Below are positions 1,443 to 19,629 of a stretch of DNA of 19,629 nucleotides, piece by piece; the stretch's first letter is position 1, and each line of letters opens with the position of its first letter. The position numbers and the translations under genes are program-made. Under the pieces are notes generated by a model that worked only from the letters and a program-made list of their open reading frames with translations, ran no database searches and was not told where the DNA came from. The stretch is from an uncultured Nitrososphaeraceae archaeon (GTDB lineage Archaea > Thermoproteota > Nitrososphaeria > Nitrososphaerales > Nitrososphaeraceae). Where the stretch lies: positions 1-19,629 of the forward strand of contig CAWIMJ010000026.1 of assembly GCA_963837175.1 (NCBI GenBank), in the 5' to 3' direction.

Positions 1443-1613
1443 CAACTACGAAGGCATGATCCTACTTCAAGATTCATCAAGTATCCAATTAAGACTAGCC
1501 TAGGAGTGCTGGGCAAGAAGTGTGCCATACTGATAACCAGAGATATCGGCTTTCTCAAGATTAAGCGTTTCAATCGGCTCATAGAATCTATTCAAGCCTT
1601 AATCCACTCTTAG
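1443..1613 (+). pseudogene. Truncated HxlR-family winged-helix regulator, divergent from the DUF1428 gene
   Basis: FIKYPIKTSLGVLGKKCAILITRDIGFLKIKRFNRLIESIQAL* resembles the HxlR N-terminus (CP...LG.KW..LI.R......RF..L...I.GL). It is cut off before the recognition helix and has no clear start. Confidence 0.7.
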
Positions 1614-2248
1614 ACTAATCATTTTACATCACGCAAGTGTCCATTTGAATCTTTACTCTTTATTTAGGCCTTATCTTGTATATCTAGAACCATAGTTATT
1701 CATTACTGAAGAAAAAGACGAATCTATCCAAATTATTGTCAGTACCTTTCCTTTTTTATTAATAGCTTATACTTGTAATAATAAACAATATTGCTGATTT
1801 GTTAAAGTGAGTTTTGATTTCTAAAAAAGATTGCTTAGAATAATAGTAATACTTGCCAAACGAAATAAAGATGGATATGTTCAAGATAACAAAATTCAAC
1901 ATCTGCATCATCGGAATGCTGGTAGGAATAGGACTTATTTGTCTCCTTCCTTTTATGGGTTTAACATGCAGATGGGGCTGTACTCCTGGCAGTTAGGAAG
2001 ATGAGGTATTAAAGTATTCATCTTCCTATTTTATGCCTCTCTTGGGTACATTTGTTTAAAACGTGTATCGCTGCAGATGAAAATTCAATTGAATAGCATA
2101 TTTTATTTTGTTTGTAATTTTGAAAGAATCAAAAGATAGAAAATAAAATGTTATTAAAATTAATCATGTATAAATGATGTTGTCCTAAGGATGTTCTAGT
2201 TCGAATAATAATAATAATACACTATCTCTATTCTTGTCATATTAAAGA

Positions 2249-2335
2249 CTAATCATATTTCTCTTCATCTTCTAGTTCTTGTTCTTCTCTTGATGTCTCT
2301 TTATCTTCTTTTTCCTCTTCTTGTTGGTTACTCAT
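2249..2335 (-). CDS. Possible 28-aa acidic micro-protein
   Basis: MSNQQEEEKEDKETSREEQELEDEEKYD*, with TTATATA (minus strand, ~2363-2369) about 28 nt upstream of the ATG. Confidence 0.35.
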   Translation of the reverse strand: MSNQQEEEKEDKETSREEQELEDEEKYD

Positions 2336-2680
2336 AAGTAGAAGGCCTAATAGGAGCATTGGTATATAACTATTATTATTTTGGATTATGTCAAGTCTTC
2401 GGTGGTTGATTTAATGTAAAATCATAATTATAAAAATTCGGTTGGTAGATGAGATTATTTCGGTGGTATATCTTTAATTGATGATTTGAGTTCGACTCAA
2501 GTTATAACTCCTCATTGGTTACTACCAACTATCAATAGTCATCCTTTATGGTTTTGCAAATGGAGCAGGTCAAGTGGGATTTGAGCTTTTAGTGGTATAT
2601 GAGGGTTCAACACTTTTTTCTTCTTATATTCCATTCTTGATATTGCAGTTAAAACATAATTCGTGACGTTCAATTAAATA

Positions 2681-2945
2681 GTGAAATAATAGTAATATTT
2701 TTGTCAGGAATTATCATTATTGACTCCTATACAATACATAAATGCAGCTAATGCACAGGAGCAGAAAAAGCTTGTTCCAATATTTTGGCACCTATAAGTG
2801 CATATGGAGACAATGTATATATGACATGGTGGTACAACAAGACTCGTACTAGAAAGGTGTTTTTCAGAGGTAGTACAGATGGTGGAAAAACTTTTGGTAA
2901 ACCATTATAGTAAATAGTACTAGTGATGGAGCGCTCTTAGTATAG
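2681..2945 (+). pseudogene. Fragment of a secreted BNR/Asp-box (sialidase-like) protein
   Basis: Frameshifted signal-like segment (IIVIFLSGIIII), then APISAYGDNVYMTWWYNKTRTRKVFFRGSTDGGKTFGKP containing the Asp-box S-x-D-x-G-x-T-F. Confidence 0.65.
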
Positions 2946-3396
2946 AAACGAAAGGATGTAAAATAAATTGACAGCATAATTATACCCAAGAAATAAGAAT
3001 TTTTTCTATGTGAAGTATATATAATATATAACTAACAAACACCGCCAGCCATGGGCCAATACGACAGTATGTCTTGGCAGATCTTTATTCATGGCTTGAA
3101 GCTCATTCTGGGTTTACATCTTTCACTCCTTCCTTCTCCTCATCCCACTCTTCCTCTACTACAGCTCCAGGTTAGCACTAGTTCGATGGAATGTAAGACA
3201 GATTTGACGTCAGGGTTTGGCCCACATTATGCAAATATAGAGACTTCAGAACAAAAGAATACATCTCGTGGAGAAAGAGATGACAAATTTCATTATATTT
3301 ATCTACTATCTCTAATTATGCGGCAGTCGCAACATTAGGCTTTACATGTAAATGTCTAACTATATATTCCAGTATAATAATTGAATACAAGAGAAC

Positions 3397-3740
3397 ATGC
3401 AACAAAAACAAAGACCTCTTGGTGTTACAATAATAGCAATATTGATGATAATTAGCGGAATAGCATTGCTTAGGTACCTGGAGCAATTCTTTTAGTGGTT
3501 GGAATCGGTGTCGTACCTATTGTGTTAGGTATAGCATCTTTTGTTATGGCTTATGGTTTATGGAAAGGAAAAGGATGGGCATGGACTATAACTTTGATAA
3601 TATCAGTGATAAGCATTATAAGCGCTATAGTTTCAATAGCATTTCATGGTTATGGAGCAATAATTAATATAATTATAAATGCCGTAATTATCTATTACTT
3701 ATACAGACCAAATGTCAAAGCATATTTTGGTAAAGTATAA
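3397..3740 (+). pseudogene. Conserved archaeal small multi-TM membrane protein with one frameshift
   Basis: ATG 3397 gives MQQKQRPLGVTIIAILMIISGIALL. After a shift near 3470-3480 it continues GAILLVVGIG...YGLWKGKGWAW...YYLYRPNVKAYFGKV*. The ORF track shows only the 3495-3740 part. Could be a sequencing error. Confidence 0.7.
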
Positions 3741-4063
3741 TCACCGGCAGTAAAATAGGACGCTCTCATGATTGTATAGGTATGTAGTGCAAACTTGATG
3801 CTATAGTAGTTGATGATGCTATAAGGTTTGTATACCCTAACAGGAAGGAAGAAAGAAGCAAACGGAAAACAGTTCCACTATGCTTTTGGTACAAAACCTT
3901 CATTTTCAATGCTGATCTAGCGATAATAATGCTTTCAACAATTTGTAAAGAATTGACATTATAAAGAAATTGCAATTACTCATAAATGCTACAGTAGCAC
4001 AAAATAATAATAATTGTTTTCTTAATACTATAATACTATATAATTATCATCAAATAATACGAA

Positions 4064-4520
<457 letters not shown>

Positions 4521-5003
4521 ATAAGCAACTCAATAAAAAGCCTTTACAAATTGTTTTAGAATTAATGTATATAATATTTCTTGTATTTGCCGCAATTCTG
4601 TAAAAATAAAAATATTTTTACAGTAATATAACTAACTGCTGGATTATACTGTGGTAAGGAATTATCCATGAAAAGGAGAGGTTACATCATGTAAGGATAG
4701 AACATGAAAAAAGAGATTAGATATCGATATACAAAGACGAATATAAGCACAAGACACTAAAAGGTCTTCAAGGAGTAAATGAGCACATGAGAAACCTTGG
4801 TAATAAATTTAATAATTTATTATTATATTTTCCATTATATTAAAGACTTTTAAAGAAATACTAACTTTAAGTAGAGTATATTTAAATAGATATCAGGAGT
4901 AATAGTAGAGTCAAATCTGCTTATATATTCTAAATTCGACATTAAAATTACAAGCTGATAATGATAATCTTTTAATCTCTATTAAGAAAATAAATGCTAT
5001 TAT

Positions 5004-5375
5004 ATGGATGCTTATTATCGTGTTACTATAATTATTTTAGTTTCTATTGTTGCAATAGGTTTGGTTGCAATTCCCTTTGGAAATCCCAAATTCATTGATA
5101 GGGCAATTATTTTGGAATTATCATTTATTACACTGTCTGTTTTAGTATGGAAAGGATATAGTAAAGCACTATATCCTTGTATTCCATTAGCTCTTTTAGT
5201 CATTGTTGGAAATAGTCTTGCATCACCACATGTTAATCTTATGATGACATTTTCCAAACCAGTAAATGCAATTGTGCTGATTGTAGGTGGATATGTATTG
5301 CAAATAGCTTTAATATACACTAGTTTAAGATCCATATTGAATATAAGTTCAAAGAGACTAACTGCAACACCATGA
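5004..5375 (+). CDS. Hypothetical 4-TM membrane protein
   Basis: Intact 123-aa ORF with ATG start, four hydrophobic helices and a GNSLASPH loop. Lies 50 nt upstream of the Rieske gene on the same strand. Confidence 0.8.
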   Translation: MDAYYRVTIIILVSIVAIGLVAIPFGNPKFIDRAIILELSFITLSVLVWKGYSKALYPCIPLALLVIVGNSLASPHVNLMMTFSKPVNAIVLIVGGYVLQIALIYTSLRSILNISSKRLTATP

Positions 5376-5425
5376 TCTTATCTATATCCTATTGTCTTTA
5401 TAAATAATAGGAAGAATGAAACCAC

Positions 5426-7293
5426 ATGACCAATTCAAAAATAGGTGATACTTCTCATTATGTATTTGCTGCCAATATATCAGATATACAAGCTGCTGGT
5501 GGATGTCTTTCTGTACAGATTCAAAAGTATACGATTGCTCTTTTCTATTATGATTTTAAAGTACATGCAGTCGATAATAGATGTCCTCATATGGGTTTTC
5601 CTTTAAGCCGTGGCACTGTTAAAGATAGTATTCTTACTTGCCACTGGCATCATGCACGTTTTGACCTTACAAGCGGAGGAACATTTGATCAATGGGCTGG
5701 TGATGTACGTTCTTTTCCCCTAGAGATTCGCAATGGAAATGAGGTATGGATAGACGTTTCTTCATCTTCATTGGATCCTCTTTCTTACCATCAAAAGCTA
5801 TTACAAAATGGACTTAAACAGAATATCTCCTTAATGATTGCTAAGGTGATTATTGCAATGTTAGGGGAAAAAAGGAAAGATAATGATGTAGATAAAGAAG
5901 ATAATGACAATAAAAGATATTCAGGTATAGCAAAAGCATTTCTTACTGGGCTTGATTTTGGTACTCACTATAAACAATCAGGATGGGGACAAGGATTAAC
6001 AATACTCAGCTGTATGATGAATATTCTATACTACCTTGATATCAAAGATAGACCCCATGCATTATACCATGGTCTTGCTGCTGTTGCACAGGATTGTGCT
6101 TCCATGCCCCCCAGATTTGAATTATCTCCTTTACCGTCGTCTTGGCTTGACTTGCCCACACTTAAACGCTGGTTTAGACAATTTATCGAATCCCGTGATG
6201 CTCAAGCAGCTGAGAGATGTATTGTTACTGCCGTATGGCTTGGTGCTGATAGCTGCCAGATGGCTGATATGCTTTTTGGAGCAGCCACAGATCATCGTTA
6301 TCTAGATATTGGACATGTTCTTGATTTTACTAGTAAGGCATTAGAAGCACTTGATATAGCTGGATGGGATAATAAAGAATTAGTAGAATCTGTATTAAGT
6401 AGCCTTGTGTATGGGTATGCCAATGCTGAAAGAATGGAAGAATCTAGTTCATGGCGACATCCAGTAGACTTGATAGCAATTCTTGAATGCGCCTTCAGAG
6501 ATCTCCCATCAGTATTAGAGAATGGCAGAAGCAAACAAACGAGAGAAAAAAAATGGAATGGCAAAGATCAATTAATAAAGGTGTTATTATCTGATGATCC
6601 ACAATCAATATCTAATGAATTATTAAATGCCTTGAAAGAAGGAGCTAGTGAAGTGGTATTGGCAAGTACTGTAGCATATGCTGCAGCCTTACGTATAGCA
6701 CAATTTAATACACGTAATGAATTCAGTGATTGGGATACTGCACTACACACGTTTACTTACACTAATGCTGTACATCAGGGATTAAGACGGGTTGCTACAC
6801 AAGAGCTAATAAGAGGCGTATTTGATGGTGCAATGAGAGTCTATCTTAATCGTTTTTTGAATGTACCTGCTGTACACGTCTGCCAACGCCGACAACAATA
6901 GAAAACAATAACAGTGGCAGTACATTTAAAGATCCTGAAAATTTGCTAAAAGAGTTTCCATTACTTTTGGATAAGCAACAGCAGGTAAATCAAGCAGGAC
7001 AATTAGTAATAGATTATCTGTATAATTATGGAAATCCAGATCGACTTTTGGTTGTCATGGGAAATGTTTTACTACGTGAAGACCGCAACTTTCATTCTGT
7101 TCAGATGATTGAAGCAGGTTTTCGACAATATTCTCTTCTATCTGTTCAAGATGCAGATGAACAGACGAACATTTTGATAGCAATAGCTAGATACCTAGCA
7201 TCTCATACGCCAACTATGCGTGTACAAGAACGAACATATCAGATAGCAAATCAACTTTATCAAGGAGAACGACTGTTTGAAGATCAACAATAG
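5426..7293 (+). pseudogene. Large Rieske [2Fe-2S] domain protein (~621 aa) split by one 2-nt frameshift
   Basis: Rieske ligands CPH...CHWH (NRCPHMGFPL...LTCHWHHARFDL) followed by a long helical domain. ORFs 5426-6901 and 6943-7293 join as ...NVPAVRLPTPTTIE... if one AC of ACAC (6874-6877) is removed. Confidence 0.85.
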
Positions 7294-7311
7294 GTTAGAT
7301 TTAAAATAAAA

Positions 7312-8407
7312 TCATAAAAATTATGTCTTTCAAATTTCGTTCCCACTCTACCTCCCAATCCCATCTTAAATAGTGGAAGTATTTTTGCAAGTATACCTCC
7401 TGCAGCGCCCAAGACTATTCCTATTCTAATATTGATTACTCAAATTCCTGTTTGTTTTGCTGCTTCTGTGGCGTTTTCCCATTGATAGCAAACTTCAGAC
7501 AGAAAATCAAAAGAGTCAGCTGGAGGACTGTTGTCTTCAGATAGAATCTCGTCTCCTATATTATTGCTGCCATAATATCCTGTCGCAGAAGCTGATACCA
7601 GCACTATAGGTGGTTTATTAAGAGATGCTAGAGACTTGCATAGAAATTTAGTGCTTTGTACTCTGCTTAATAGAATTTTTTTCTTTTTCTCTTTAGTCCA
7701 CCTTCCATAGATATTTTCTCCTGCAAGATTTACTACTCCATCTACTCCTTCTATTGATGGTAAATAAAGAGAACCTGATATAGAGTCCCAGAGAACAGTG
7801 TGGAGAGGGAGATCTGAGCAAACGTACTATTTTATTTCCTCCTGCAGTAAGAAAGGATGCCAAAGCTGAACCAATAAATCCCGTAGAACCTGTAAGAAGA
7901 TGATCATAGGAATTATATTATTATTATCCGTCTTCCACCTTACAGAATTATTATGAATAGAAATATCCTGATTAGTTATTGTATCTCTATACTCAAATAT
8001 CTCCTTTAATTTTTTCTTGACCATGGTTTGAGAAAATACTTTACCAAGAATTCCCAGAGGTAAAGAATATTCTATTCTATCTTCTAAGATAGAAGAGGCA
8101 GCATCTTTAGATTCAAACAAATGAGTATGGCTCCATGAAGAAAAGGTCCTGAGATTTAAATATCACGAAATTGTTTACCTTCTATGTAGTCGATATGTTT
8201 TAAAACCCACGTAATACTGATAATATGTTTAATTAAGGGCATTTGAATAGTAACGTAACCACCGGTATCAATCTGTCCTTTTCTCTCTTTAACAATGAAA
8301 GGTTGCCATGGTGGATTAAGTCGTTCAAAAGCACCGTCTCTACAATGCCAACCAAAGACTTGAGTTGAGGGAGCCGCAATACTACTGCAATAAACAAATA
8401 GTTCCAA
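7312..8407 (-). pseudogene. SRPBCC domain fused to TIGR01777-family NAD-dependent epimerase/oxidoreductase, degraded and truncated
   Basis: N-terminal VFGWH...AFERLNPPW...FRDI*ISGPF/SWSHTHLF...LEDRIEYSLPLG (SRPBCC-like), then the Rossmann motif TGSTGFIG, VVNLAGENIYGRWTKEKK, SASATGYYG, FLSEVCYQWE, RIGIVLG and GLGGRVG. In-frame stops at 8156-8158 and ~7440, several frameshifts, C-terminus missing. Confidence 0.85.
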
Positions 8408-8474
8408 TATGCTGTATTCCTAAATAAGGGAATAAAATAGTAAGGGTTAATTACAGTATAGATAAATATTTATT

Positions 8475-8675
8475 TTATCTTAGTTCCATAGCTACTTCTG
8501 GCTTCAATCTCTTTTTCTCTATCTCTTGTCTTACTAAGAGAGCTGTGACCATTGCCGATCCTCCGAGAATAACACTTGCTATTCCCATTATAGCTGTTCC
8601 ATTAAAAGCGCCTGCGATAGTTATGCCCGCTGTACCCATTACCAAAATCCATGGTATTTTATTTTTGATATTCAT
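8475..8675 (-). CDS. Small 2-TM membrane protein (66 aa)
   Basis: ATG start, Gly-rich helical hairpin and charged tail. TTTATATA box on the minus strand about 25-30 nt upstream. Confidence 0.6.
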   Translation of the reverse strand: MNIKNKIPWILVMGTAGITIAGAFNGTAIMGIASVILGGSAMVTALLVRQEIEKKRLKPEVAMELR

Positions 8676-8994
8676 ACTGGATATTAAATACTCATAATAT
8701 ATAAAAATAGTGGTAATAAATGTATCTAGTGCTAACTTGACTAAAAGATCAAGACTTCAACTTAGCAAATCATGTAGGACCGATTAATAAAGATAATTAG
8801 CATATCTCCGAACACTGACAATTTAGTTTAGATGGTTTAGTTTATACATCATACTCATCTCGTGTCTCATAGGATGATATTTATTCGGCCAATTTACCTA
8901 TGTAATATCTAGTAACGATTTTATCGCATATCATTTTATATACTCACGAATTTAGAGTAACTAACGTTATGCAACAAAGAAAGACTTTACTTAA

Positions 8995-9889
8995 GAGCCT
9001 ATCCCAAAAATAGATAGGAATATAGCTTGTGGGTTTCTTATCATATTTGAGAATGTTTAAGAATAAAAAGTATGTTAGAACAATTATACATATTCCAGAT
9101 GATCTTTGGAATGAAATTAAAAATATTTTACCAGATAAGAAACCAGAGAATACAATAGGCAGACCAATTGTTCCTTATAGAAAAGTATTTGATGGTATCA
9201 TGTTTATCCTGAGAACTGGATCTCAGTGGAAAATGTTACCTAAAGAGTATGGTTCCGGTTCAACATGCCATAGAAGATTTCAGGAATGGAGGCAATCTGG
9301 TATTTTTGATAGACTATGGACCAGATTGTTAAAAATATACAATCATAAAAGAGGAATAAAATGGAACTGGCAGTCACTTGATAGTATATCAGTAAAATCA
9401 CCTTTAGGGGGGCGATGACTGGACATAATCCTACAGATAGAAGCAAATTAGGAACCAAAAGACATATTCTTACAGATAAAAAAGGTATTCCACTATCTGT
9501 TATTATAACATCTGCAAATACTCATGATGTCACTGTTGCAATTGAAACAGTTGACAGCATGGTTATCAAAAGACCATCATCATCAAAACCAAAGCATAAA
9601 CAGAAAACAGAACCTGTGCGTTGATAAAGCATATCATTCCAAAGAAATAGAACAAGAAATTGTGAAGAGAGGATATATTCCACACATATACGACACAGAA
9701 GAGAAGAGGAAAGAATATTTCATAGAAAACATCCAGCAAGAAGATGGGTTGTAGAAAGAACAAATTCATGGCACAATAGATTTAGGAAGTTATTTACAAG
9801 GTATGAAAAGAAGGACGAGAACTATCTGACTCTTGTAAAATTAGCCAACTGTATTATTATCTACAGGAGGATAATTTTGGGATAGGCTC
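8995..9889 (+). mobile_element. IS5-family insertion sequence, 895 bp
   Basis: Perfect 15-bp terminal inverted repeats GAGCCTATCCCAAAA (8995-9009) / TTTTGGGATAGGCTC (9875-9889), with a TAA direct repeat on both sides (8992-8994, 9890-9892). Internal transposase with IS5 motifs. Confidence 0.95.
9029..9885 (+). pseudogene. IS5-family DDE transposase: -1 junction at a G6 run plus two extra frameshifts
   Basis: OrfA has DDLWNEI...GRP...ILRTGSQWKMLPKEYGSGSTCHRRFQEW and SLDS. OrfB has NPTDRSKLGTKRHILTD, CVDKAY and RWVVERTNSW...RYEK. The -1 junction is at GGGGGG 9407-9412. Extra A at 9604-9607 and extra TA at 9689-9690. The TAG stop lies inside the right TIR. Confidence 0.9.
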
Positions 9890-10311
9890 TAAGTCTACCT
9901 CCTATAGATATATTTCTAATAATAACAATACTGAAATTGAAGGGAATAAATGTTGGTATTATAACTAGTAATAGTAATGACAAATCTGAACAAATATTAA
10001 CTCAAAAGGGAGAGAATGAAGCTCCATTTGTAAAATTAAAACCAAGCAAAAAGGTGAGCTGGTGGTTTTTAGAAGAATGAATACGTCATATGCGAAATTT
10101 TCAAATTTTTATAAGGACAGGTATTTTGAATGACTAAGTGAATCAGCGAATTGTAATTTTAAAGAAAATTACTTTGTATGAGCTCTGGCATAACTATGAA
10201 ATGAATCCTAGTACAGAATGAAGATGATTGGGATATTATTGTCCGTCCTAGGAGATCAGCAACAAGAGAAAACATAATAGCGTTGACAAAAGATGATAGA
10301 AAAAACTTCCG

Positions 10312-10590
10312 TTACCAGAATCTTAGCTTTGATTTTAAATATTTCAAAAGTATAATTAATGTCATCGCCCTTAGATTTCCCTCTATTTTATGACCTGTTA
10401 AAAACAAGCCAATTGCTATTGGAAATAAAATAATGCCAATTATAGGAGATAAGATATCTAGACTACCAAGATAATAACCTGCAAGTAGAGTGAATCCAAT
10501 AGCATAAAGAGATAATCCTATAAGATGCAGGACTCTACTGATAGCATTTCTATGGGTGCTTTTTATTGCCTTAAATAGATTGAGTTGCAT
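10312..10590 (-). CDS. DUF962/Mpo1-like small membrane protein
   Basis: Family-type His motifs HRNAISRVLHLIG and GHKIEGN flanking TM helices. Confidence 0.7.
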   Translation of the reverse strand: MQLNLFKAIKSTHRNAISRVLHLIGLSLYAIGFTLLAGYYLGSLDILSPIIGIILFPIAIGLFLTGHKIEGNLRAMTLIILLKYLKSKLRFW

Positions 10591-10741
10591 TATCGTTATA
10601 TAATATCTCTTCTAACTCTCAATATAATAAAGCTTGCCTAGTAATTAAGATAATCCAATTTCATTCGATGGTGCCTACTTCATAACATCATTTACTAGTT
10701 TTCGTATCTTTTTCCATACAAAAAGCCATTGACTAAGGAAA

Positions 10742-10882
10742 TTTCCGTACACTCCATAGTTTTCCATACAAAACTCCGTACAGTTTTCCGTACACTCCAT
10801 AGTTTTCCATACAAAACTCCGTACAGTTTTCCGTACACTCCATAGTTTTCCATACAAAACTCCGTACAGTTTTCCGTACACT
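10742..10882. repeat. Perfect 43-bp tandem repeat, about 3.3 copies
   Basis: Unit TTTCCGTACACTCCATAGTTTTCCATACAAAACTCCGTACAGT starts at 10742, 10785 and 10828, with a 12-bp partial at 10871. A further partial TTTCCATACAAAA lies at 10711-10723. Confidence 0.97.
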
Positions 10883-11706
10883 AGTGGGATGTGGAAAGTT
10901 GGTATACCTATCTTATATCTAGTCTACTATACATTATAGCTAATTATATAGTATTTTCTACACAAAACACAAACTGGATAAACAAAGAAGAACTAAATAT
11001 ATCATCAACACAACTATCGATAGAATATTATAATGTCTTTTCATGCTCGCTAGCCAAGCTTAATATCAAGCTGGATTGATTAAAGAAGAAAATACATCGG
11101 AATTACTTAGGTTTACAATATATCATATGCTATTTCAAATTTGCAAAAATCCAATATATCTTCTACTCTGATAAGACTAACAACATAAACCTCAATACGA
11201 TCAGCATCAGCAGCATATTCATCATTTACACTAGAGTTTTGAGCTACTTATTAATATCTCACGATGGACAGGATTTAGAGCAGAATTACCTGCCCACTAT
11301 TGAAAATCGTGTTTTGTCAGATCATTTGTCATCTCTGTATTACAATATAATCACACAATTATCAGAATGTCTAAAGCGACAGGTGCATTGATTCACAGTC
11401 TTCAGAATTATTAGAGACAGAAGGAATTCTCTATCACAGTAGTAATAAAGTGTCATTATTCTAATGAGCGCATCTTCTAACTAATGTCGTATATATTGCT
11501 ATGGAAACATCCATCATATTCATTATAGTGTCGTGAATTATATTTTCTATAATACCGTTAAAAACTTAAAGTTGAATCAAAAGGCATAACTATAATTTTT
11601 TTCTTGCAGCAGAGCATAGTTTAATAAGACTCTGTTAATGGGATTCTTGTTATTTTTATCGTCTATCATTTTCATTTATTAGCAACATAAATATCTATGC
11701 TGTTCC

Positions 11707-12366
11707 CTACAAAATACCTTTAACTTTTTGGTTTCTTGTTATTTCTTTATTATAGATCGGTGTCAATTTTTGTAACTCATTTAGATATATAATGTATCTT
11801 TTATTAAACCCATTACCATCTGCATCAAAGTATACATCTATATTATTTGGCTCTGTAATTCGTGCAAGCAATGTAAGAAGTTGTCTCACATCATTATCAT
11901 ACTTTAATGAGCTTTCATTCACGATTACAGATAGCAATTGAGTGAGTCTTCCATGCAATCCAAGAAGATAAAGAGAATGTGTAAGATATAATTTGGCATC
12001 CAAGATATCTCCTTCTAATGCTGCCAGACAAAAATCAAACAGAAGATTCCTTAAAGGCAAACCAGATCTACCTATATTTTGTATTTGTTTGTACCGTTGT
12101 TTACCTATTATCTCTTCTACCGATGCATCTTTTAAGAATTTGTTGAAAAGTTTTACAATGTCTTTTAAGCTAACTGTATTTCTTCCTACTTCAATTATAC
12201 CTAATCTTGTTGCAACACCATCTATGTCTTGGAAGTGAAACTGTGAATCCATCGTTGTACCTTTTGAAAGTTTACTATTGCTTAGAATACTACTATCTAT
12301 AGGTATATATTCTATTAACCTCTCTATCTCTTCAAAAATTGCTAATGTCATAAAACCTTCCCACAT
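11707..12366 (-). CDS. Hypothetical protein (219 aa, or 214 aa from the second Met)
   Basis: Long uninterrupted ORF in stop-rich AT DNA with globular, helical composition. No family recognised. Confidence 0.7.
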   Translation of the reverse strand: MWEGFMTLAIFEEIERLIEYIPIDSSILSNSKLSKGTTMDSQFHFQDIDGVATRLGIIEVGRNTVSLKDIVKLFNKFLKDASVEEIIGKQRYKQIQNIGRSGLPLRNLLFDFCLAALEGDILDAKLYLTHSLYLLGLHGRLTQLLSVIVNESSLKYDNDVRQLLTLLARITEPNNIDVYFDADGNGFNKRYIIYLNELQKLTPIYNKEITRNQKVKGIL

Positions 12367-12764
12367 TTATGTTAGTTTTATATTCATTTATTCTCATATT
12401 TCTCATTCTGAATCTCCTGCCTTGAATTATCTATCTGTAGAGAATATGTTATGGATATATTAGCACTTTCAAATGTGCAGATTTAGAAGTTTGTATGCAA
12501 ATATTTCCACAAACCAGAGAATATGTTATTCTGACACCAAATTGCACAAGATATAATATTTTTCGATATTATCATTTGTTTCTCTAACGGTACTTCCTTG
12601 ACTAACCCAAAGTATACGTTAAAATTGTAAAATATAGGCAATAGGTTACATTTTTCTTTGTTTTGCTTATTTCATGTTAAAATTATGCAATACTCGCGTA
12701 GATTAAGCATTTTTGTCATGTTTTTTAGAAAGAATTAACTATCTGCAGTATGTAGTGTCCTTCA

Positions 12765-13118
12765 ATGAATTACACTAAACTTCAAAATCCAAAATACCAA
12801 ACATGCATAGATGTCTGCAATAACTGTATGGAAGCCTGCGAAGCTTGTTGTACAGCTTGTCTTTCTGATGCAAATAATGTTAGCATGATGACAAGATGCA
12901 TAATGATGTGTCGTGATTGTGCTGATATGTGTATGATGACATCTACTATGATGTGTAGAGGCAGTGAATATGTAAGACAGATGTGCAATATGTGTGCTGA
13001 TATGTGTGATGCTTGTGCTATGGAATGTGAAAAATATGGTAACAAGATGGAACAATGTAAGCAATGTGCTGATATGTGTCGTGCATGCGCTCAAGAATGT
13101 AGGAATATGACACGCTAA
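12765..13118 (+). CDS. Four-helix-bundle copper storage protein (Csp3/DUF326 family)
   Basis: 22 Cys in CxxC/CxxxC spacing (CIDVCNNCMEACEAC, CRDCADMC, CADMCDACAMEC, CKQCADMCRACAQEC). No signal peptide, so cytosolic Csp3 type. Confidence 0.92.
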   Translation: MNYTKLQNPKYQTCIDVCNNCMEACEACCTACLSDANNVSMMTRCIMMCRDCADMCMMTSTMMCRGSEYVRQMCNMCADMCDACAMECEKYGNKMEQCKQCADMCRACAQECRNMTR

Positions 13119-13131
13119 TTCTTTTCTTTTT
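13119..13131 (+). terminator. Putative archaeal oligo-T terminator
   Basis: TTCTTTTCTTTTT immediately after the Csp3-like stop codon. Confidence 0.55.
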
Positions 13132-13439
13132 AATTTGTGTTATGCTTTATAAGATCCGATTAAATAATGTAGATAAACTCCAGATATTGTGTTTTTTGAT
13201 CTATCAATCCCAACGTCTTGATCCATCAAAAAATCATATTTGAAAGTAATCGTTATTATTAGTATATCTACATCCCATCGCATTGGACTGGTTTAATCTT
13301 GCTTCTTTTAGAATATTTCTGATGGATATTTAATTACAAATCACTTAATAACATGTTTAAAAGAATAGTTCAGGTTATGAATATCCTAATTATAGTTTAT
13401 TTATCATTTACTGCAAAAAAGGCATGTAATATGTTTACA

Positions 13440-13465
13440 TTGCATATTTGAATCCACTTATATCC
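13440..13465 (+). promoter_or_regulatory. TTGCATATTTGAA motif plus TATA box upstream of the Zn-ribbon gene
   Basis: TTGCATATTTGAATCCACTTATATCC begins 50 nt before ATG 13490 and is 21/26 identical to the ssuA upstream region. Confidence 0.6.
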
Positions 13466-13489
13466 TGGCAGCATATATACATATGATTA

Positions 13490-13831
13490 ATGTCTGTCAT
13501 AGAAGCACTACCACCATCAGTAGAAGACAAAGAACAAATAAGAAAAACGATAAGGACTGTAGAAGAACAGAATGAAAGAAGAAGGAGTGATGCTACAACA
13601 AGACTAAACGTTCAAAATGTTATAACACAAATACAATTCTTATTATGTCAGTCTTGTTTTTGGTGTGCATCTTATATTGGTTTATCAAGCAACGTAAAGA
13701 CAGTCGACTTAATTAAATGTCTAATTTGCAAAAATGGTAAAATAGAATCATTACCAATTGCAAATAATGAACGTTACAAATTTGATCACGATCAGAATTA
13801 TGGAGTGATGCTACAATTCCTCAAAAGATAA
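13490..13831 (+). CDS. Small CxxC...CxxC Zn-ribbon-like hypothetical protein
   Basis: FLLCQSCFWCAS...KCLICKNGKIESLPI...ERYKFDHDQNYGVMLQF, a pattern I recognise from Nitrososphaeraceae paralogue families. TATA box at leaderless distance. Confidence 0.8.
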   Translation: MSVIEALPPSVEDKEQIRKTIRTVEEQNERRRSDATTRLNVQNVITQIQFLLCQSCFWCASYIGLSSNVKTVDLIKCLICKNGKIESLPIANNERYKFDHDQNYGVMLQFLKR

Positions 13832-14964
13832 AGATAAAAGATAAAGAGAGTAGATGATGATTACTAATATTAGTTGTATCAAAGACAAAGGAGTCTGATC
13901 AAACAAATTTAAAGATATATTTTATTTTATTTTTCTATGGTATTATCAACTATTTTTCCATATTTTGACCAAGAGCCGCCATAATTCTTTATGTGTGTGT
14001 TTCAAATAAATATTTTAGAATAAACTAGGTACGTGAAGACTTTGGTTTATTCTGCAGTATGCGATGACTTCATTGCTATGAGTTGTTGGTCTAGATTGAT
14101 CTTCCATCTCCTCTTTGGTTTAATGCGCCCATCAAAGATGATGGCTTGTCCTCAAATTATGCTTTTTCTGCTCTTGAATATGTCATCCAATATGAGAATA
14201 TTATGTCGCATATTCCGGTGAAGTAAAGATTTCTCCGGTAAATTCTTTTTGGTTTCTAACATCGACCAATAATCTTTGTTGCTAAGGATTTCTTTACCTA
14301 TTCGAGAAAGACTCATCTCATATTATTATTGGTTCTGCGGCCTTGAAATTCCTTTGGAATAAGTTGGAAGGTCTTTGATAATTGGCCAAACTTCTTCCAG
14401 CCATTTCTTTTTCTTCGTTAGTCAATCTTTAATTCTTATAGATATAATACTTGAATACCCAGAATGTAATGCTGCAAACCAATTGTTGAAATCTCTAGAC
14501 TATTAACATTGCACCATTGCTGGCATCTGAACTCCAATAATTCCTCACATATTTATCTACTCAGCACAATCATGTTAAGCAGTTCATTAATTTCTTTTTA
14601 CTACTCAAATAAAACAGCTTCTGGATCATTACCTCTTACCTTATAATCTTTTATGTGATTCTCTGCCTACCCTATTAATCTACCAAACTTTGCATAGTCA
14701 GATGTAACCTTTCTGCTTGATTATGCTAAAACTGACATATTGATATGTATATCGGATTTACAATATAAGCTAAGTCAAAAGATGCAAATAAGGGAAAACC
14801 ATGTAATTTCTTGTTTGGTCATTCTAAAATTGATTTACGCAGCTAATAAGTGAACATAAATAAATGGTCTGGGATGGTAAACAGAGTTGCTCTAAACACT
14901 GAATTAGTATATTCATGTTTTTCTATGCTGCATTCTCTATTATGTTCCCAATCGTCATTAATTG

Positions 14965-16089
14965 TTAAAGAACACTATCAATATCTGTTTGTTCTTGTCC
15001 TCCTCCACCAATTGTAGGTAATCCTTTTTCGGATAATACTTCGTCTAATAGTTTCAAATCATATATTCCTGATAAATCAGGTCGTGTTTTTCCTAAAAAT
15101 CCAATATCAAATGCGCTATTAGCTGATTGAAAGAGTGATAATTTAATAGGGTCATATGTTAATTCTAATCTTGCTAAAGATTCTCTTAACTGATCCTCAG
15201 GAATTGCCTGACCGGTAAGTTTTTTGAGCTCGACATTGAATGCTTTTATTGCTTCTTCTTTATGGCTGTTGATCCATTCTGTTTCATCTACATGTGCTGC
15301 CAACAATTTCTTTATCACATCTGGATTGTTTTGAAGATAATCTGTCCTAGCAACTATGTTTGATGTTACAAACTGTCCGTTTGGTGGCCAAAGATCTCTT
15401 TCATCTAAAAATAGTCTCGCATTTGCTTCTTTTATTAACCGTGCACCCCAAGGCTCTGGTACCCATGCACCATCAATCTCTTTCTTTAACATCAGAGTCA
15501 GTATATCAGCAGGTTTTGCAGGTACTACTTCTACATTTCCTCCGTTTTCTTTTGTTTTGTATCCATTATTTAGTAAGTATTTTCTAAGAGCTACATCCTG
15601 AGTATTACCAAGCTGTGGAGAAGCAAATTTTTTATTTGCAAAATCTTTGGTTGATTGTATTCCTGAATCATTTCTAACTACGAAAACTGCTCCTCCACTT
15701 GATGCACCAGAAATTATTCTAAGATCTTTTCCTTGTGAAACAACATATGCATTGATTGCAGGATTGGGACCAACATATGTTACGTCAACTTGCTTTGCGA
15801 ATAATGCCTCCATTGCTGATGGACCTGCGTTGAAAACAAATGTCTTGACCTCAACATTGTCGCCTAAATCTTTCTGAAATGTACCATTCCCCAAACCTAT
15901 TACTGCCTGTGCGTGATTGATATTTGGAAAATAGCCAATCTTCAAAGTTTTCTTTACTACACTGCCTTTTTCTCCACTAATACTAGAGTTATTAGTTTGC
16001 GAAAATGCTGGTGTAGTAGTAGGTATAACAATTGCTGCTACAAGAATAATTGCGGCAGCAGTTATAGCAGATATTGTTTTTATATGCAT
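14965..16089 (-). CDS. ssuA: Aliphatic sulfonate ABC transporter substrate-binding protein (SsuA/NMT1-like)
   Basis: Sec-type signal peptide and motifs LKIGYFPNINHAQAVIG, FNAGPSAMEAL, YVGPNPAIN, ASPQLGNTQDVALR and DGAWVPEPW. Confidence 0.88.
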   Translation of the reverse strand: MHIKTISAITAAAIILVAAIVIPTTTPAFSQTNNSSISGEKGSVVKKTLKIGYFPNINHAQAVIGLGNGTFQKDLGDNVEVKTFVFNAGPSAMEALFAKQVDVTYVGPNPAINAYVVSQGKDLRIISGASSGGAVFVVRNDSGIQSTKDFANKKFASPQLGNTQDVALRKYLLNNGYKTKENGGNVEVVPAKPADILTLMLKKEIDGAWVPEPWGARLIKEANARLFLDERDLWPPNGQFVTSNIVARTDYLQNNPDVIKKLLAAHVDETEWINSHKEEAIKAFNVELKKLTGQAIPEDQLRESLARLELTYDPIKLSLFQSANSAFDIGFLGKTRPDLSGIYDLKLLDEVLSEKGLPTIGGGGQEQTDIDSVL

Positions 16090-16114
16090 ATGACGATAAT
16101 AATTTAATATCAGT

Positions 16115-16140
16115 GTATATGACTGCTTTCAAATATGCAA
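16115..16140 (-). promoter_or_regulatory. TTGCATATTTGAA motif plus TATA-like box upstream of ssuA
   Basis: The minus strand reads TTGCATATTTGAAAGCAGTCATATAC, beginning 51 nt before the ssuA ATG. Confidence 0.6.
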
Positions 16141-16243
16141 ACCCTGAACAATATGCGCAAAAAACTATCATAAATAATATATATTTAGCACGCTTTGCTA
16201 GTATCGCAAGTTCAATATATGTCATTTTAACACATATTATCAA

Positions 16244-17230
16244 TTGCTTGACGACCTAGCCATAAATAGAATAGATAAAAAAAAACCTCGAAAAGAAGGT
16301 TTAACCTTTATAGTAGATAAGATGCAAGGGCTAGATAGAGAAAATCTCGAAATATTAGCACCATTGATAGACGTGGTAAAGATTTATGGTGCGTATCCAT
16401 TATTAATGTCTGAATCTCAGCTAGAGAGGAGAATAAAATTTTATCATGATTTTAATATTTTGGTATCGACTGGAAGTACTATTACAGAATACGCTATTAC
16501 GGAAAGCACTCTTGAGAAATTTGTTAGAGAAGCTGCTAAAGTTGGATTTGATATAATAGAAATTGGCGAAAATAATATTGATCTAAATATAGAACAAAAG
16601 AAAAGGATTACTGATACTATATTATCTATAAATCTTGATTCTCATTGGAAAATAGGCAAAAAGGATCCTCGTCATCAGATTGGAATAGATAAAACACTGT
16701 CAAAGGTTGAAGAAGCACTAACCATAGGTACTGACAAGGTAATACTTGAAGCTAACGAAGGAATCAATGTCGGTATTTATGATGAAAAAGGATTAATAAA
16801 ATGGAATTTTGTAGCAGCGCTTACTTCAAAATATCCACCAAATAGATTTATTTTTGAAGCACCTCTGGAGACTCAGCAATCTGCTTTAATAGCAGAATTT
16901 GGTCAGCGGGTGAATTTAGCTGAGGTTCGTCATGATATTGTTGCATCTGTGGAATCCCAGCGAAGAGGATTTTTATCTAAAGCTTCCTTTGGTGTATCGA
17001 TCCTTCACAAGGAACCAGAAGGTGGACCTGCTTCAAAATTCATTTATTATATAATAAAGACAAAACATCCTATAGAACAAGCAGAGTTGATGCGGCTAAC
17101 TCGTCTGCCTAGACGAACTGTTCAAAGTGCTGTAGACGAACTAAAAGAACAAGGATTGATAGCAGAAAAAAGCAGTCTCGAAGATGCTAGAAGGAGAATT
17201 TATTATCCTATTCAATCAGACTGGATTTAA
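16244..17230 (+). CDS. comA: Phosphosulfolactate synthase (ComA)-like domain fused to a C-terminal winged HTH
   Basis: KPRKEGLTFIVDK, IDVVK, GFDIIEI, IGKKDP, FIFEAP..QQ..LI.EFG..VNLA and RRG match the ComA family. The last ~70 aa (PASKFIYYIIK...IEQAELMRLTRLPRRTVQSAVDELKEQGLI...DARRRIY) form an archaeal MarR/TrmB-like wHTH. TTG start. Confidence 0.88.
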   Translation: MLDDLAINRIDKKKPRKEGLTFIVDKMQGLDRENLEILAPLIDVVKIYGAYPLLMSESQLERRIKFYHDFNILVSTGSTITEYAITESTLEKFVREAAKVGFDIIEIGENNIDLNIEQKKRITDTILSINLDSHWKIGKKDPRHQIGIDKTLSKVEEALTIGTDKVILEANEGINVGIYDEKGLIKWNFVAALTSKYPPNRFIFEAPLETQQSALIAEFGQRVNLAEVRHDIVASVESQRRGFLSKASFGVSILHKEPEGGPASKFIYYIIKTKHPIEQAELMRLTRLPRRTVQSAVDELKEQGLIAEKSSLEDARRRIYYPIQSDWI

Positions 17231-17332
17231 TTGCATAAATATATGACACCACAATAGATACGTGTAATGCCATGAAGTATAGGTATTAGGTTTTAGAGTA
17301 CTAGCTTATTAGAGACACACTCATAAAATAAT

Positions 17333-17599
17333 ATGATGTCAGATTCAGGATGTAAACATCTTAAATTAATTCAAGAACACGTAAAGCCTAGTGCAGATGG
17401 CTGTGAGGACTGTCTTAAAATTGGTGATTCTTGGGTTCATTTGCGTCTTTGTCTTATTTGTGGCCATGTAGGATGTTGTGACTCGTCAAAGAATAAACAT
17501 GCGACTAAACATTTCCATTCAACAGAACATCCGATTGTCCAATCTTTTGAACCTAATGAAAATTGGAGATGGTGTTTTGTGGATCAGACATTTCTTTAG
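17333..17599 (+). CDS. Stand-alone UBP-type zinc finger (zf-UBP) protein
   Basis: CKHL...GCEDCLKIGDSWVHLRLCLICGHVGCCDSSKNKHATKHF...HPIVQSFEPNENWRWCFVD. Confidence 0.92.
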   Translation: MMSDSGCKHLKLIQEHVKPSADGCEDCLKIGDSWVHLRLCLICGHVGCCDSSKNKHATKHFHSTEHPIVQSFEPNENWRWCFVDQTFL

Positions 17600-17871
17600 C
17601 ACACACCGAAGGTTGTAGATGTCCTGAATAAAAATCCAAAATTCAAGATTTGGAATCTAGGTCTTGGTGTCATAGCTTTTGCTGCACTTTTTAATTACTT
17701 GTTAATTCATTCATGCATAGCACAAAAATTTCCCAAACCTGGAGTACCATAACTTTGCATTTATTATCATGCAAAGATAAAATCATACTCACCGTCACTA
17801 TTAGCGGTCTCCTACTGAAAAAATCATTATCATCACCACATGCAAGAGCCGACCATCTGGTGTAGGAATGG

Positions 17872-18270
17872 AGGAAACAAATGCAGACCCTATCCATAGA
17901 TATACAAACAAAGATTCTCAATAAGTTGGATGAAAGAATACATTGACTTACCCAGACTATGGTTGAGCGACCAGAACTAATTAATTAAAGTAATAAGCAA
18001 TATCCAGCAAACTATTCTTCACCAGATATATCATTTTCTTATCATATCCTATACACATTTGCACATGTTTTCCATATGCGTCAAAGAGGGGTTGTAGGTA
18101 TTAATGAATTGAATGGATGGTTACGGCGGATTAAAAGCGTCTTTAAATAAGGCATGATAGCAGATATTTGGAAAACTATAGATGCAGAGAAATGATTTGA
18201 TGCTGCCTTTGAGGAATTCATTAATAGGGAATTAGCACCTGTGGCTACTAAAAAATACTCAAACCCATAG
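17872..18270 (+). pseudogene. Degraded conserved hypothetical protein
   Basis: Manual translation: RKQMQTLSIDIQTKILNKLDERIH*LTQTMVERPELI...SPDISFSYHILYTFAHVFHMRQRGVV...GWLRRIKSVFK*GMIADIWKTIDAEK*FDAAFEEFINRELAP. Several in-frame stops and no 5' end. Confidence 0.65.
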
Positions 18271-18337
18271 TGACAGATACTATTTTACAAGATTTTATTA
18301 ATCGTATTCATTGATATTTATTCAGCTGAAGTTGAAC

Positions 18338-18747
18338 CTACTTCTTGATTGTTCGATAAAGTTTTTTAAATTCTTGATAAGACTTGGAATCTCTTTCATC
18401 TACTTATGCAATTTTCAGGAATGTGTCTTCGTAATATTTGACTATAGTAGGTTAGATGTGTTCTATCATCTTCGTATCACTAATCACTTTTTCATTGACT
18501 ATAAATGAAAGCCAGTTCACACTATTAAATGTGCGAGAATACCATTGACTCCTAGCATAGTCATATTGAGATCCTAAAGGTAATTTAGCGAGCTCGCGAT
18601 CCAAATCTCTAGATTATTGAAAATATTATTTGACAATGTAATCTGATTTAGTCTTTTCGTAAGCCGAAATGTTACGATAGTATAAAATAATGCTATTGCG
18701 TATATTCCAGCGGTAATAATCTGAAAGTATTCAGAAGGTATTACCAT
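18338..18747 (-). pseudogene. Degraded single-TM-anchored hypothetical protein
   Basis: MVIPSEYFQIITAGIYAIALFYTIVTFRLTKRLNQITLSNNIFNNL /shift/ DLDRELAKLPLGSQYDYARSQWYSRTFNSVNWLSFIVNEKVISDTKMIEHI*PTIVKYYEDTFLKIA*VDERDSKSYQEFKKLYRTIKK*. Confidence 0.65.
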
Positions 18748-18948
18748 GTGTGGATTTAGAGAATAGCATGATTTTAGATTTAGGTTTTTTAATTGACTAC
18801 GTCTTTATCTGTAGCGGAAGTTCAGTATCATATGAATCAAACAGTCTCCAGAAATACCTTTACTAGGATCGTCGGATCGGTGAGCACATTTAGATTGGGT
18901 TGAGTTATTCTTGGATGATTCAAAGATAGTGTTTTCTTACTACTGCTA

Positions 18949-19629
18949 TTATCTTTCGCTAAAGAACGCTGCGAGCTGCTCAATGACAAAATCTGGCTGC
19001 TCTTCTGGAATCCAATGTCCTGAAAGAGGAACCGTGAATCCCTTTACATTTGTAGCTAATGATTGTAACGAGCTTAACGCAAAATTTCCAGGAAGATCAC
19101 CACCTAATGCTGGATAAATATCACCACCTAATGCTAATACAGGCATTGTTATCTTAGCCTTAGCTGATTCTTTATTTTGCTCTGCATCTATTGGGAAAGC
19201 TCTAAAATGTTCAAATGTGCATGCATTCCACCAGGAGCCGAAACATGACTTGCAAATACATCTATATCTTCTTCTGTAATTGCAGATGGATTATAAGCCA
19301 ATCCTTTGAAGAACCATGATATATATTCCCGCTCCTTACCTTCTACAAGAAATTCTGGTAAGTTAGGCACTGATGAAAAGCAAACCACCAAGGTCCATTC
19401 TCACCAAATTCTGGAGGTAAAAATCCTGGGAATGGAAAATCCATGATCACTAATTTATTTACATTGTCAGGATGAGCTGCAGCATATGAATAAGCTGTCT
19501 GTGAGCCTACGTCATGTGCTACCAACAAAATTTGATTAAAACCTAATTGAGATGTCAATTGATAGATATCTTCTGCAGTAGTCTTACCGTCGTAACCTGT
19601 AACTGGCTTTGAAGAATCACCAAATCCTC
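18949..19629 (-). pseudogene. Alpha/beta hydrolase (epoxide hydrolase/dehalogenase type) with two frameshifts; 5' end outside the window
   Basis: GFGDSSKP, Asp-nucleophile motif VAHDVG, WWFAFH, MPVLALGG and catalytic His motif SGHWIPEEQP. Frameshifts near 19368 and 19215 join the three track ORFs. Confidence 0.85.

Follow-up and report, generated by a model that had tools for sequence, protein, structure and literature searches.

We analyzed a 19,629-nt stretch of DNA from an uncultured Nitrososphaeraceae archaeon (positions 1-19,629 of contig CAWIMJ010000026.1, assembly GCA_963837175.1; hereafter the window), which encodes a protein that joins a ComA-type barrel to a winged helix-turn-helix (wHTH). 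The open reading frame (ORF) of this ComA-wHTH fusion and an ssuA-like ORF diverge, head-to-head, across 154 bp of intergenic DNA (Table 1). With belief and doubt about equal, we take the fusion to be an enzyme-derived, one-component regulator of sulfur acquisition, in which a non-canonical and probably non-catalytic barrel serves as the sensor.

Table 1. Features of the ComA-wHTH locus, with positions counted from the first nucleotide of the window
Feature	Position	Strand	Remarks
Second dyad, ATATGT-N7-GCATAT	13429-13447	+	43 nt upstream of the 113-aa ORF; tentative second site
Cys-rich ORF	13490-13831	+	113 aa; no Pfam match; recurs beside the fusion gene
ssuA-like substrate-binding protein of a NitT/TauT-type ATP-binding cassette (ABC) transporter	14965-16089	-	374 aa; N-terminal hydrophobic anchor
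Divergent intergenic region with both promoters	16090-16243		154 bp
Two direct ATATGC(G)CAAA-like words	16133-16161	+	Starts 18 nt apart; possible weak half-sites on the ssuA side
TATA-like box of the fusion gene, TTCAATATAT	16211-16220	+	About 25-30 nt before the start codon
Dyad, ATATGT-N9-ACATAT	16217-16237	+	Between the TATA-like box and the TTG start; candidate autoregulation operator
ComA-wHTH fusion gene	16244-17230	+	328 aa; TTG start
ComA-type (beta/alpha)8 barrel	16277-16975	+	Residues 12-244; remodeled catalytic face
RRGFLSKAS loop and linker to the wHTH	16961-17026	+	Residues 240-261; predicted local distance difference test (pLDDT) 75-78
Winged helix-turn-helix	17027-17209	+	Residues 262-322; three helices and a two-strand wing

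A preliminary description of this DNA, made from the sequence alone, had placed the fusion head-to-head with a sulfonate-binding protein gene; the coordinates proved exact, and the neighbor passed the cut-off of TIGR01728 SsuA_fam (205.6 bits against 163.5) and matched PF13379 NMT1_2 (E 3e-31). We consider this ssuA-like gene a putative regulated target of the fusion. The start codon called for the fusion is supported by its relatives, which begin at the same codon with ATG-CTT-GAC-GAC. Contigs from four soil metatranscriptome libraries, each from a different study, contained ssuA in 4/4, the fusion in 3/4, and the downstream zf-UBP gene in 4/4; such contigs carry no level, strand, or ends and may reflect DNA carry-over, and are thus weak evidence of transcription only. 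The intergenic region was uncovered by these contigs, which is not evidence of absence.

Both domains of the in-frame fusion that the preliminary description had proposed were found in the single 328-aa ORF. Residues 12-244 matched PF02679 ComA (E 9.2e-65; 218.9 bits against a cut-off of 25.2) over profile positions 4-241 of 243, and residues 270-317 matched PF12802 MarR_2 (E 1.1e-6; 29.1 bits against a cut-off of 27). With the ComA equivalog model TIGR03849 the fusion scored 163.7 bits, under the 280-bit cut-off. By this score and by its replaced near-invariant residues, described below, the fusion lies outside the ComA equivalog group.

We then compared the barrel with M. jannaschii ComA (1QWG). 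All the altered motifs listed in the preliminary description were visible in the HMMER alignment (E 4.9e-31), namely KFGWGT to KIYGAY, GGTLFE to GSTITE, EISDG to EIGEN, EVGKK to KIGKK, EGRESG to EANEG, and RRGLRGDT to RRGFLSKA, and GKK and FEAP were kept, as had also been stated. In fusion numbering, the changed residues are A50, S78, G108, N110, K136, N171, A226, and E227. Relative to stand-alone ComA, the substitutions are G78S, S108G, G110N, E136K, R171N, and N227E, and LRGDT has become FLSKAS with a one-residue insertion. The consensus of 69 stand-alone representatives has G78 (68/69), S108 (65/69), G110 (62/69), E136 (66/69), K140 (66/69), R171 (60/69), N227 (64/69), R244 (59/69), and T248 (61/69). 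The fusion retains K46, E82, E106, K140, E169, E172, E205, Q211, Q212, N224, and R240. Its K140, N171, K136, and E106 align with K137, R170, E133, and E103 of the M. jannaschii enzyme, whose K137 Wise and colleagues are said to have proposed in 2003 as the general acid of ComA.

Across 130 aligned sequences, these residues split by lineage. N171 and S78 were present in 43/43 Nitrososphaeraceae rows, and K136 and E227 in 42/43; 33 genomes contributed these rows, which hold 38 distinct genes, and some of the loci appear twice. Among 80 distant fused loci, three from Nitrososphaerota included, E136, N227, and S108 were found in 80/80 and R171 in 79/80, the other being R171A. Barrel identity was 65% within Nitrososphaeraceae, similar to the 67% within the canonical Thermoplasmata set, which argues that the barrel is constrained rather than decaying. 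Together with the fixed substitutions, this within-family identity ruled out a pseudogene or decaying domain, and the substitutions appear to be a fixed new state. Overall, the altered residues speak against canonical catalysis by the Nitrososphaeraceae proteins.

To place these changes on a structure, we used an AlphaFold2 (AF2) model built from a 70-sequence alignment, which had a mean pLDDT of 91.8 and a predicted template modeling score (pTM) of 0.80 and comprised eight barrel strands and a winged helix. Foldseek with this model returned 1QWG first (E 6.9e-22; template modeling score 0.85 on the target) and 1U83 third (E 1.9e-14). The active sites of triosephosphate isomerase (TIM) barrels are found at the C-terminal ends of the barrel strands. 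In the fusion model, the changed positions lie at or just after the C-terminal ends of strands 73-75, 104-107, 132-137, 166-168, and 224-228, or in the loop that follows helix 230-240.

ComA is described in the literature as a homotrimer. A three-copy prediction of the fusion scored 0.87, against 0.00 for the best of three controls, with at least 92% of contacts agreeing between runs and partner pLDDT of at least 83; the mark used for such complexes was reached by 20/30 solved pairs and 1/23 single chains, and a trimer prediction differs from that calibration. In the trimer model, residues 231-249 contact residues 26-30, 49-55, 79-80, 140-142, and 171-172 of the next subunit, and within them loop residues 241, 243-247, and 249 contact 49-55, 79-80, 140-142, and 171-172. 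By these contacts, K140, the replaced residue N171, and the region around A50 would face the remodeled loop in a single predicted inter-subunit pocket. The wHTH lies outside the interface in this model. The active sites of ComA are reportedly at subunit interfaces as well, according to the same 2003 work of Wise and colleagues.

DSSP on the AF2 model assigned the wHTH helices to residues 262-274, 279-286, and 290-302 and the wing strands to 306-310 and 318-322. The recognition helix reads LPRRTVQSA. R291, T292, and L300 were near-invariant among 21 fused representatives, the invariant positions of 13 aligned C-termini included R36, R37, T38, and Q40 of the recognition helix, and LPRRTVQ and a wing motif, D-x-R-[RK], were nearly fixed across the aligned wHTHs. 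Between phyla, the wHTH was the best-conserved segment, with 48% identity versus 38% for the barrel. A wHTH profile searched against the PDB found MarR/SlyA DNA-binding domains (4mnu, E 1e-4; 1lj9, E 0.0044), and the match to a SlyA-like chain covered residues 35-89 of its 153 aa; the fusion wHTH spans 61-74 aa. The fusion shares the recognition helix and wing core with MarR/SlyA regulators but not the N- and C-terminal flanking helices that form the MarR dimer, and since these are absent it is not a full MarR protein. Oligomerization would have to come from the barrel.

A related module occurs elsewhere in the same genome (G000). A 334-aa NAD kinase (PF20143, PF01513; G000:C50:365847-366851) has a C-terminal extension homologous to the fusion wHTH (36% identity over 59 aa; E 1e-10), and weak matches to the wHTH alone were found in frames of 333-396 aa in nearly all 61 Nitrososphaeraceae genomes. 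The NAD kinase looks like a second fusion of an enzyme and a wHTH in this lineage.

Next, we followed the distribution of the fusion. A search of 90% clusters gave 1031 proteins at E<=1e-3, and the best 120 of these matches were for the most part 328 aa long, 66-98% identical, and assigned to Nitrososphaera or Nitrososphaeraceae, Ca. Nitrososphaera gargensis Ga9.2 among them. The fused proteins are named phosphosulfolactate synthase in the databases throughout. A full-length fusion was present in 45/61 Nitrososphaeraceae genomes (one of them unpublished, G035), five of which had two copies; the remaining 16 held contig-end fragments, remnants with stops, or nothing. When 151 genomes of the class were sampled with the fusion as query (E<=1e-20), it was found in 2/3 further Nitrososphaeraceae, 3/80 genomes of a second family, and 0/67 genomes of ten other families. 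An exhaustive search of 50% representatives returned 744 matches, 21 rows of which (the protein of the window included, mostly full length) aligned through the wHTH, and the named members of the distant fused clusters came from metagenome-assembled genomes of Nitrososphaerota and Thermoplasmata. The 80 distant fused loci were collected in a scan of genome contigs; most are from soil or peat Thermoplasmata, and three are labeled Thaumarchaeota or Nitrosopumilales. A search of the open literature found no published description of a ComA-wHTH fusion.

On a FastTree of the barrel, 14 fused representatives and two truncated ones formed one clade (support 0.989), and 6/20 fused representatives fell outside this core; the quick tree does not establish the monophyly of all fused forms. 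Canonical ComA-wHTH proteins (for example, P0129 and P0124), which include those of soil and peat Thermoplasmata and of groundwater Nitrososphaerota, share the architecture, the wHTH motifs, and one clade with the fusion of the window, but have the full ComA residue set. Because these relatives with canonical residues also carry the wHTH, the fusion event appears to be older than the residue changes. Judged by their canonical residues and by neighboring sat/cysH, phosphodiesterase, and short-chain dehydrogenase/reductase (SDR) genes, the ancestral fused protein probably made phosphosulfolactate, and was probably a working enzyme, or an enzyme and regulator in one. The preliminary description had proposed a survey of ComA-wHTH architectures in archaea, and the outcome was divided: the altered motifs are fixed in Nitrososphaeraceae, but other fused relatives are canonical, and those of Thermoplasmata stand beside sulfate-activation genes.

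We also examined the genes around the fusion. Among 4-kb Nitrososphaeraceae loci, ssuA lay within 1.5 kb of the fusion in 16/29, and 13/29 showed no ssuA; among 20-kb loci, ssuA lay within 7 kb in 11/14, and ssuB (PF00005 ATPase) and ssuC (PF00528 permease) were both present in 7/14. The divergent ssuA-fusion layout was found in many genera. In N. gargensis, one copy of the fusion diverges from ssuA-ssuB-ssuC, and a second copy ends a co-directional ssuA-ssuB-ssuC-fusion row. A rhodanese gene recurs near the fusion. Three 20-kb loci from Nitrosocosmicus-like genomes (L037, L040, L041) lack ssu genes and carry a second paralogue, whose neighbors encode a CAP-domain protein and a histidine kinase.

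The distant loci gave further arrangements. The three from Nitrososphaerota, with 40-43% identity and canonical residues, had divergent ssuA and ssuB in 3/3 and ssuC in the two longer loci; the other 77, mostly Thermoplasmata, had ssuA in 0/77. An SDR gene was found 3' of the fusion in 35/80 distant loci, ATP sulfurylase upstream or divergent in 19/80, and a type I phosphodiesterase in 18/80, counts that are lower bounds because many contigs are short. In one Thermoplasmata subgroup the fusion diverges from a gene pair for 3'-phosphoadenosine 5'-phosphosulfate (PAPS) reductase and ATP sulfurylase, with the same spacing in seven loci (Pfam-checked in L128). Across two phyla, the fusion is thus found with sulfur-acquisition genes in three different arrangements.

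Several rows in these neighborhoods were recorded in their own right. In L052-L087 and L114, a phosphodiesterase and/or ATP sulfurylase gene is followed by the canonical ComA-wHTH gene and then by the SDR gene, with a ROK protein and a GH15 gene on the opposite strand; this row may be an undescribed cluster for the biosynthesis of a sulfonate (sulfolactate-like) in soil and peat Thermoplasmata. In L094-L110 and L120, that is, a subgroup of Thermoplasmata loci and one Thaumarchaeota locus, a 382-aa protein whose triosephosphate isomerase domain is joined to about 155 additional N-terminal residues is encoded convergently to the fusion. A 615-aa thiamine pyrophosphate (TPP) enzyme is encoded directly upstream of the co-directional row of N. 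gargensis (G014, L035:13702-15549, minus strand) and also occurs near the fusion in L047. We considered whether it might be a sulfoacetaldehyde acetyltransferase and rejected this, as its best score was pyruvate-oxidase-like and under every NCBIfam cut-off.

In the genome of the window (3.81 Mb, 91.5% complete; absences are provisional), PF02679 matched only three copies of one locus, about 98-99% identical, on C26 (the window), C48, and C27. A canonical stand-alone comA, whose presence the preliminary description had left to be checked, was thereby rejected for this assembly. The same description had seen no comB, comC, comD, or comE in the window, which was confirmed; genome-wide, PF04029 (ComB), PF02615 (ComC family), and TIGR03845 (ComD) gave no matches either, with positive controls matching in M. 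jannaschii, and ComE was not searched separately. No SsuD scored above the model cut-off in the genome. PAPS reductase is present, and there are five ssuA copies and a single ssuC match (C50:325827-326627). The three-copy segment on C26, C48, and C27 runs ssuA-fusion-zfUBP; on C27, neither ssuA nor the fusion is free of interruptions.

We next inspected the intergenic region for promoter elements. TATA-like boxes are promoter elements of archaea, and the same TATA-like word stands at this place upstream of the fusion in many genera. Its distance to the start codon implies that the fusion mRNA would be leaderless or near-leaderless. The pattern ATATGY-N5-11-RCATAT, which describes the dyad in the fusion promoter, matched twice in the window against 0.17 expected, and 3/200 shuffles reached two matches. 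Other genera have TATGC-N5-9-GCATA at the same place, for example TATGCAAAACATGCATA and ATATGCGCAAAATCTGCATAT; set beside these arms, the GT/AC arms of the window would be a two-sided change that preserves the symmetry. The window and 14 20-kb loci (298 kb together) held 25 dyad matches, six of them within 17 nt of a fusion start, and in two loci a second ssuA paralogue is likewise preceded by the dyad. In the N. gargensis genome (G014, 2.8 Mb), TATGY-N5-9-TGCATA matched 22 times versus 10 for the reversed control, which suggests that the dyad is not a generic promoter word. The dyad in the fusion promoter could also be a 5' RNA hairpin.

On the ssuA side, visual inspection showed that the intergenic regions of another genus (L010-L014) hold repeated words similar to those of the window. 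The half-site word ATATGCRYAAA was not enriched in the window (3 matches versus 3.72 expected), although it does match the second of the two direct words. Upstream of the fusion, CTGCRT was found in 12/36 proximal versus 1/36 distal regions in Nitrososphaeraceae and in 21/71 versus 7/71 elsewhere, a modest enrichment, partly in coding sequence, that hints at a cross-phylum core.

We reasoned that the rebuilt pocket, the downstream pathway genes that were not found, and the sulfonate-uptake partners together point to a sensor role. That no match to ComB, the ComC family, or ComD and no stand-alone ComA was found would also leave no alternative use for the product of the enzyme, which we count in favor of a regulator. 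In the mechanism we propose, the barrel would assemble as a trimer, like ComA, and each of the three subunit interfaces would form a ligand pocket. This pocket would have been rebuilt in Nitrososphaeraceae and then fixed (E136K, R171N, N227E, G78S, G110N, and LRGDT to FLSKAS); the barrel most likely no longer makes phosphosulfolactate and probably binds a metabolite of sulfur status, such as sulfite, a sulfonate, or anions like phosphoenolpyruvate (PEP) or phosphosulfolactate. The pocket-closing loop, residues 240-249, would continue into the linker and the MarR-type wHTH, and through this connection ligand occupancy could reposition the DNA-binding domains. By binding the dyad that separates the TATA-like box from its own start, the fusion would regulate itself, and from the shared 154-bp region would also control ssuA, or ssuABC in relatives. 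DNA binding, the operator, the ligand, the loss of catalysis, and the direction of regulation are all features that we infer.

Known systems offer close and distant parallels. The fusion shares PF02679, the (beta/alpha)8 fold, a predicted trimer, K140, and FEAP with ComA of M. jannaschii (1QWG), YitD of B. subtilis (1U83), and bacterial XcbB; it differs from ComA in about 85 extra C-terminal residues that form the wHTH, in its replaced near-invariant residues, and in scoring under the equivalog cut-off. The canonical ComA-wHTH proteins of Thermoplasmata differ in lying by ATP sulfurylase, PAPS reductase, phosphodiesterase, and SDR genes rather than ssuABC. RbkR (Rodionova et al. 2017, PMC5397151) combines an archaeal riboflavin kinase with a MarR-type wHTH and controls genes for riboflavin synthesis and uptake as well as the gene that encodes it. 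The likeness extends to being the sole copy of the enzyme family in the genome, to linkage with genes that serve synthesis and uptake in the same pathway, to a site, for the fusion a candidate one, at the regulator's own gene, and to an occurrence in Thaumarchaeota and Thermoplasmata (PMC5397151). RbkR differs in that its wHTH is N-terminal, its catalytic residues are kept, and its activity, operators, and ligand control are described there as proven (PMC5397151); the fusion has a C-terminal wHTH, a remodeled pocket, and a predicted trimer, known here from sequence and models. Most economically, the fusion is read as an enzyme-derived one-component regulator that would work like RbkR. The trigger enzymes BirA, NadR, and PutA, as portrayed in that source, likewise unite an enzyme and a DNA-binding domain in one polypeptide and read metabolite status at a promoter (PMC5397151), but they are bacterial, have other folds, and are demonstrably catalytic, whereas the fusion may be a pseudoenzyme sensor.

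Several observations weigh against a non-catalytic regulator of sulfonate uptake. The barrel keeps K140 and the acidic residues E82, E106, E169, E172, and E205, so catalysis of the same or another reaction is possible. The neighborhood of the canonical Thermoplasmata forms looks like a biosynthetic cluster, which suggests that a wHTH does not by itself imply a non-enzyme, and the homologous wHTH of NAD kinase means that the module could have a general role other than specific DNA binding. The trimer prediction may be the model's memory of the solved ComA trimer, and the two-fold symmetry of a dyad is a poor match for a trimer that carries three separate wHTHs. The dyad itself is degenerate in the window's own genus (L006-L009) and missing upstream of many fusion copies without ssuA; no comparable dyad was found upstream of cysH (L154) or ssuBC (L051) in the genome of the window; and a scan of the N. 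gargensis genome for a regulon yielded only the fusion's own promoter as a clear promoter-proximal match, and no regulon. The pairing of regulator and uptake gene that the preliminary description had read from the divergent layout stood in part: the ssuA link recurs across genera, but co-directional layouts occur as well, and ssuB and ssuC lie away from the fusion locus in the genome of the window.

A rival reading is a bifunctional trigger enzyme, as in RbkR, BirA, and PutA, with a wHTH that regulates and a barrel that catalyzes either the addition of sulfite to PEP or, on another substrate that the remodeled pocket would admit, a related addition or elimination. We judge this unlikely. The barrel retains Q211, Q212, N224, and R240 besides the residues just listed and is under constraint as strong as in its canonical relatives; those relatives lie in apparent sulfite-producing or sulfonate-making clusters, so the ancestor was probably bifunctional, and the cell makes sulfite, PAPS reductase being present. 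Set against this, the pocket has lost two arginines and further near-invariant residues, the charge at position 136 is reversed, the protein scores below the TIGR03849 cut-off, no ComB, ComC, or ComD was found that would use the product, and the Nitrososphaeraceae loci, unlike those of Thermoplasmata, are without phosphatase or dehydrogenase neighbors.

An enzyme that does not regulate at all seems to us improbable. Its linkage to ssuABC would be metabolic, through an imported sulfonate or through the release or use of sulfite, and its wHTH would serve assembly, protein contact, or stability. All sources name the protein phosphosulfolactate synthase, the co-directional row of N. gargensis and the failed simple regulon scan would fit, and the similar wHTH on NAD kinase in nearly all genomes of the family might be a general non-regulatory module. 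The wHTH, however, aligns through its recognition helix and wing with MarR/SlyA domains that bind DNA, no part of the protein is better conserved across phyla than the residues of that helix, the wHTH is outside the predicted oligomer interface, the dyad in the fusion promoter is conserved, and no kinase or phosphatase is linked, as a route from sulfonate to phosphosulfolactate would need. More improbable still, and in our view very unlikely, is a regulator of something other than sulfonate uptake, such as central carbon or PEP status, for which adjacency to ssuA would be historical. The second paralogue of Nitrosocosmicus-like genomes with its CAP-domain and histidine kinase neighbors, the 4-kb loci without ssuA, and the TIM-related convergent neighbor of some distant loci speak for it; the recurrence of ssuABC, of same-strand ATP sulfurylase, and of divergent PAPS reductase and ATP sulfurylase in three contexts and two phyla, along with rhodanese nearby, speaks against it. 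A wider proposal, which we hold with more doubt than belief, is that ComA-wHTH proteins are an unrecognized family of sulfur-status transcription factors found across Nitrososphaerota and Thermoplasmata of soils. Their ancestors would have been bifunctional, making phosphosulfolactate and also sensing sulfite or PEP at the promoter, and the Nitrososphaeraceae barrel would now be a dedicated non-catalytic trimeric sensor, with its anion pocket rebuilt, controlling ssuABC and its own gene.

The surroundings of the locus show further features. Window positions 13113-19629 belong to a repeat of 6.5-6.9 kb with 97.9-98.6% identity across the three contigs, and the window ends inside it. This segment contains the 113-aa ORF, ssuA, the fusion, zf-UBP, and hydrolase fragments; it may truly exist in several copies, combine strain variants in one bin, or stem from an assembly error. 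Homologs of the 113-aa ORF (cluster c6) adjoin the fusion in five loci of three genomes, namely L036 (N. gargensis), L045, and the three copies in G000 (the window, L049, and L050), making it a possible regulon member. The zf-UBP zinc-finger protein (88 aa; 17333-17599, plus strand; PF02148, 1.9e-13) is encoded on the strand of the fusion, 102 bp downstream of it, and is kept in all three genome copies of the segment. At 18949-19627 on the minus strand, three successive short ORFs (65, 67, and 71-94 aa) are apparently pieces of one alpha/beta-hydrolase (PF00561, 2.2e-11 on the last piece, the sole one scanned), and may represent a frameshifted gene or sequencing errors. Upstream of the segment, a Cys-rich DUF326 protein of 117 aa (12765-13118, plus strand; PF03860, three repeats) is overlapped by antisense ORFs at 12762-13094 and 12782-13045, which are probably shadows, and a 432-bp stretch with this gene is repeated on C27 at 97% identity. 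Positions 1-12000 have an apparently low coding density, with about 11 ORFs of at least 90 aa in 12 kb. One of these ORFs encodes a 491-aa protein that begins with a Rieske domain (5426-6901), and another encodes a fragment of an IS4/5 transposase (DUF4096; 9029-9418).

Ammonia-oxidizing archaea are major soil nitrifiers, and to our knowledge the transcriptional control of sulfur acquisition in them is undescribed. The fusion offers a concrete candidate regulator, for which the probable operator region is delimited and the possible ligands are few, and if our proposal is correct, it would be the first sulfur-responsive regulator defined in these organisms. The label phosphosulfolactate synthase would then wrongly suggest the synthesis of coenzyme M or sulfolactate in Nitrososphaeraceae. 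The family also provides a natural series for the study of how an enzyme becomes a sensor, from canonical fused forms by sulfate-activation genes to remodeled forms by sulfonate-uptake genes, and would, if the proposal holds, capture in the act the shift from an enzyme to a pseudoenzyme sensor.

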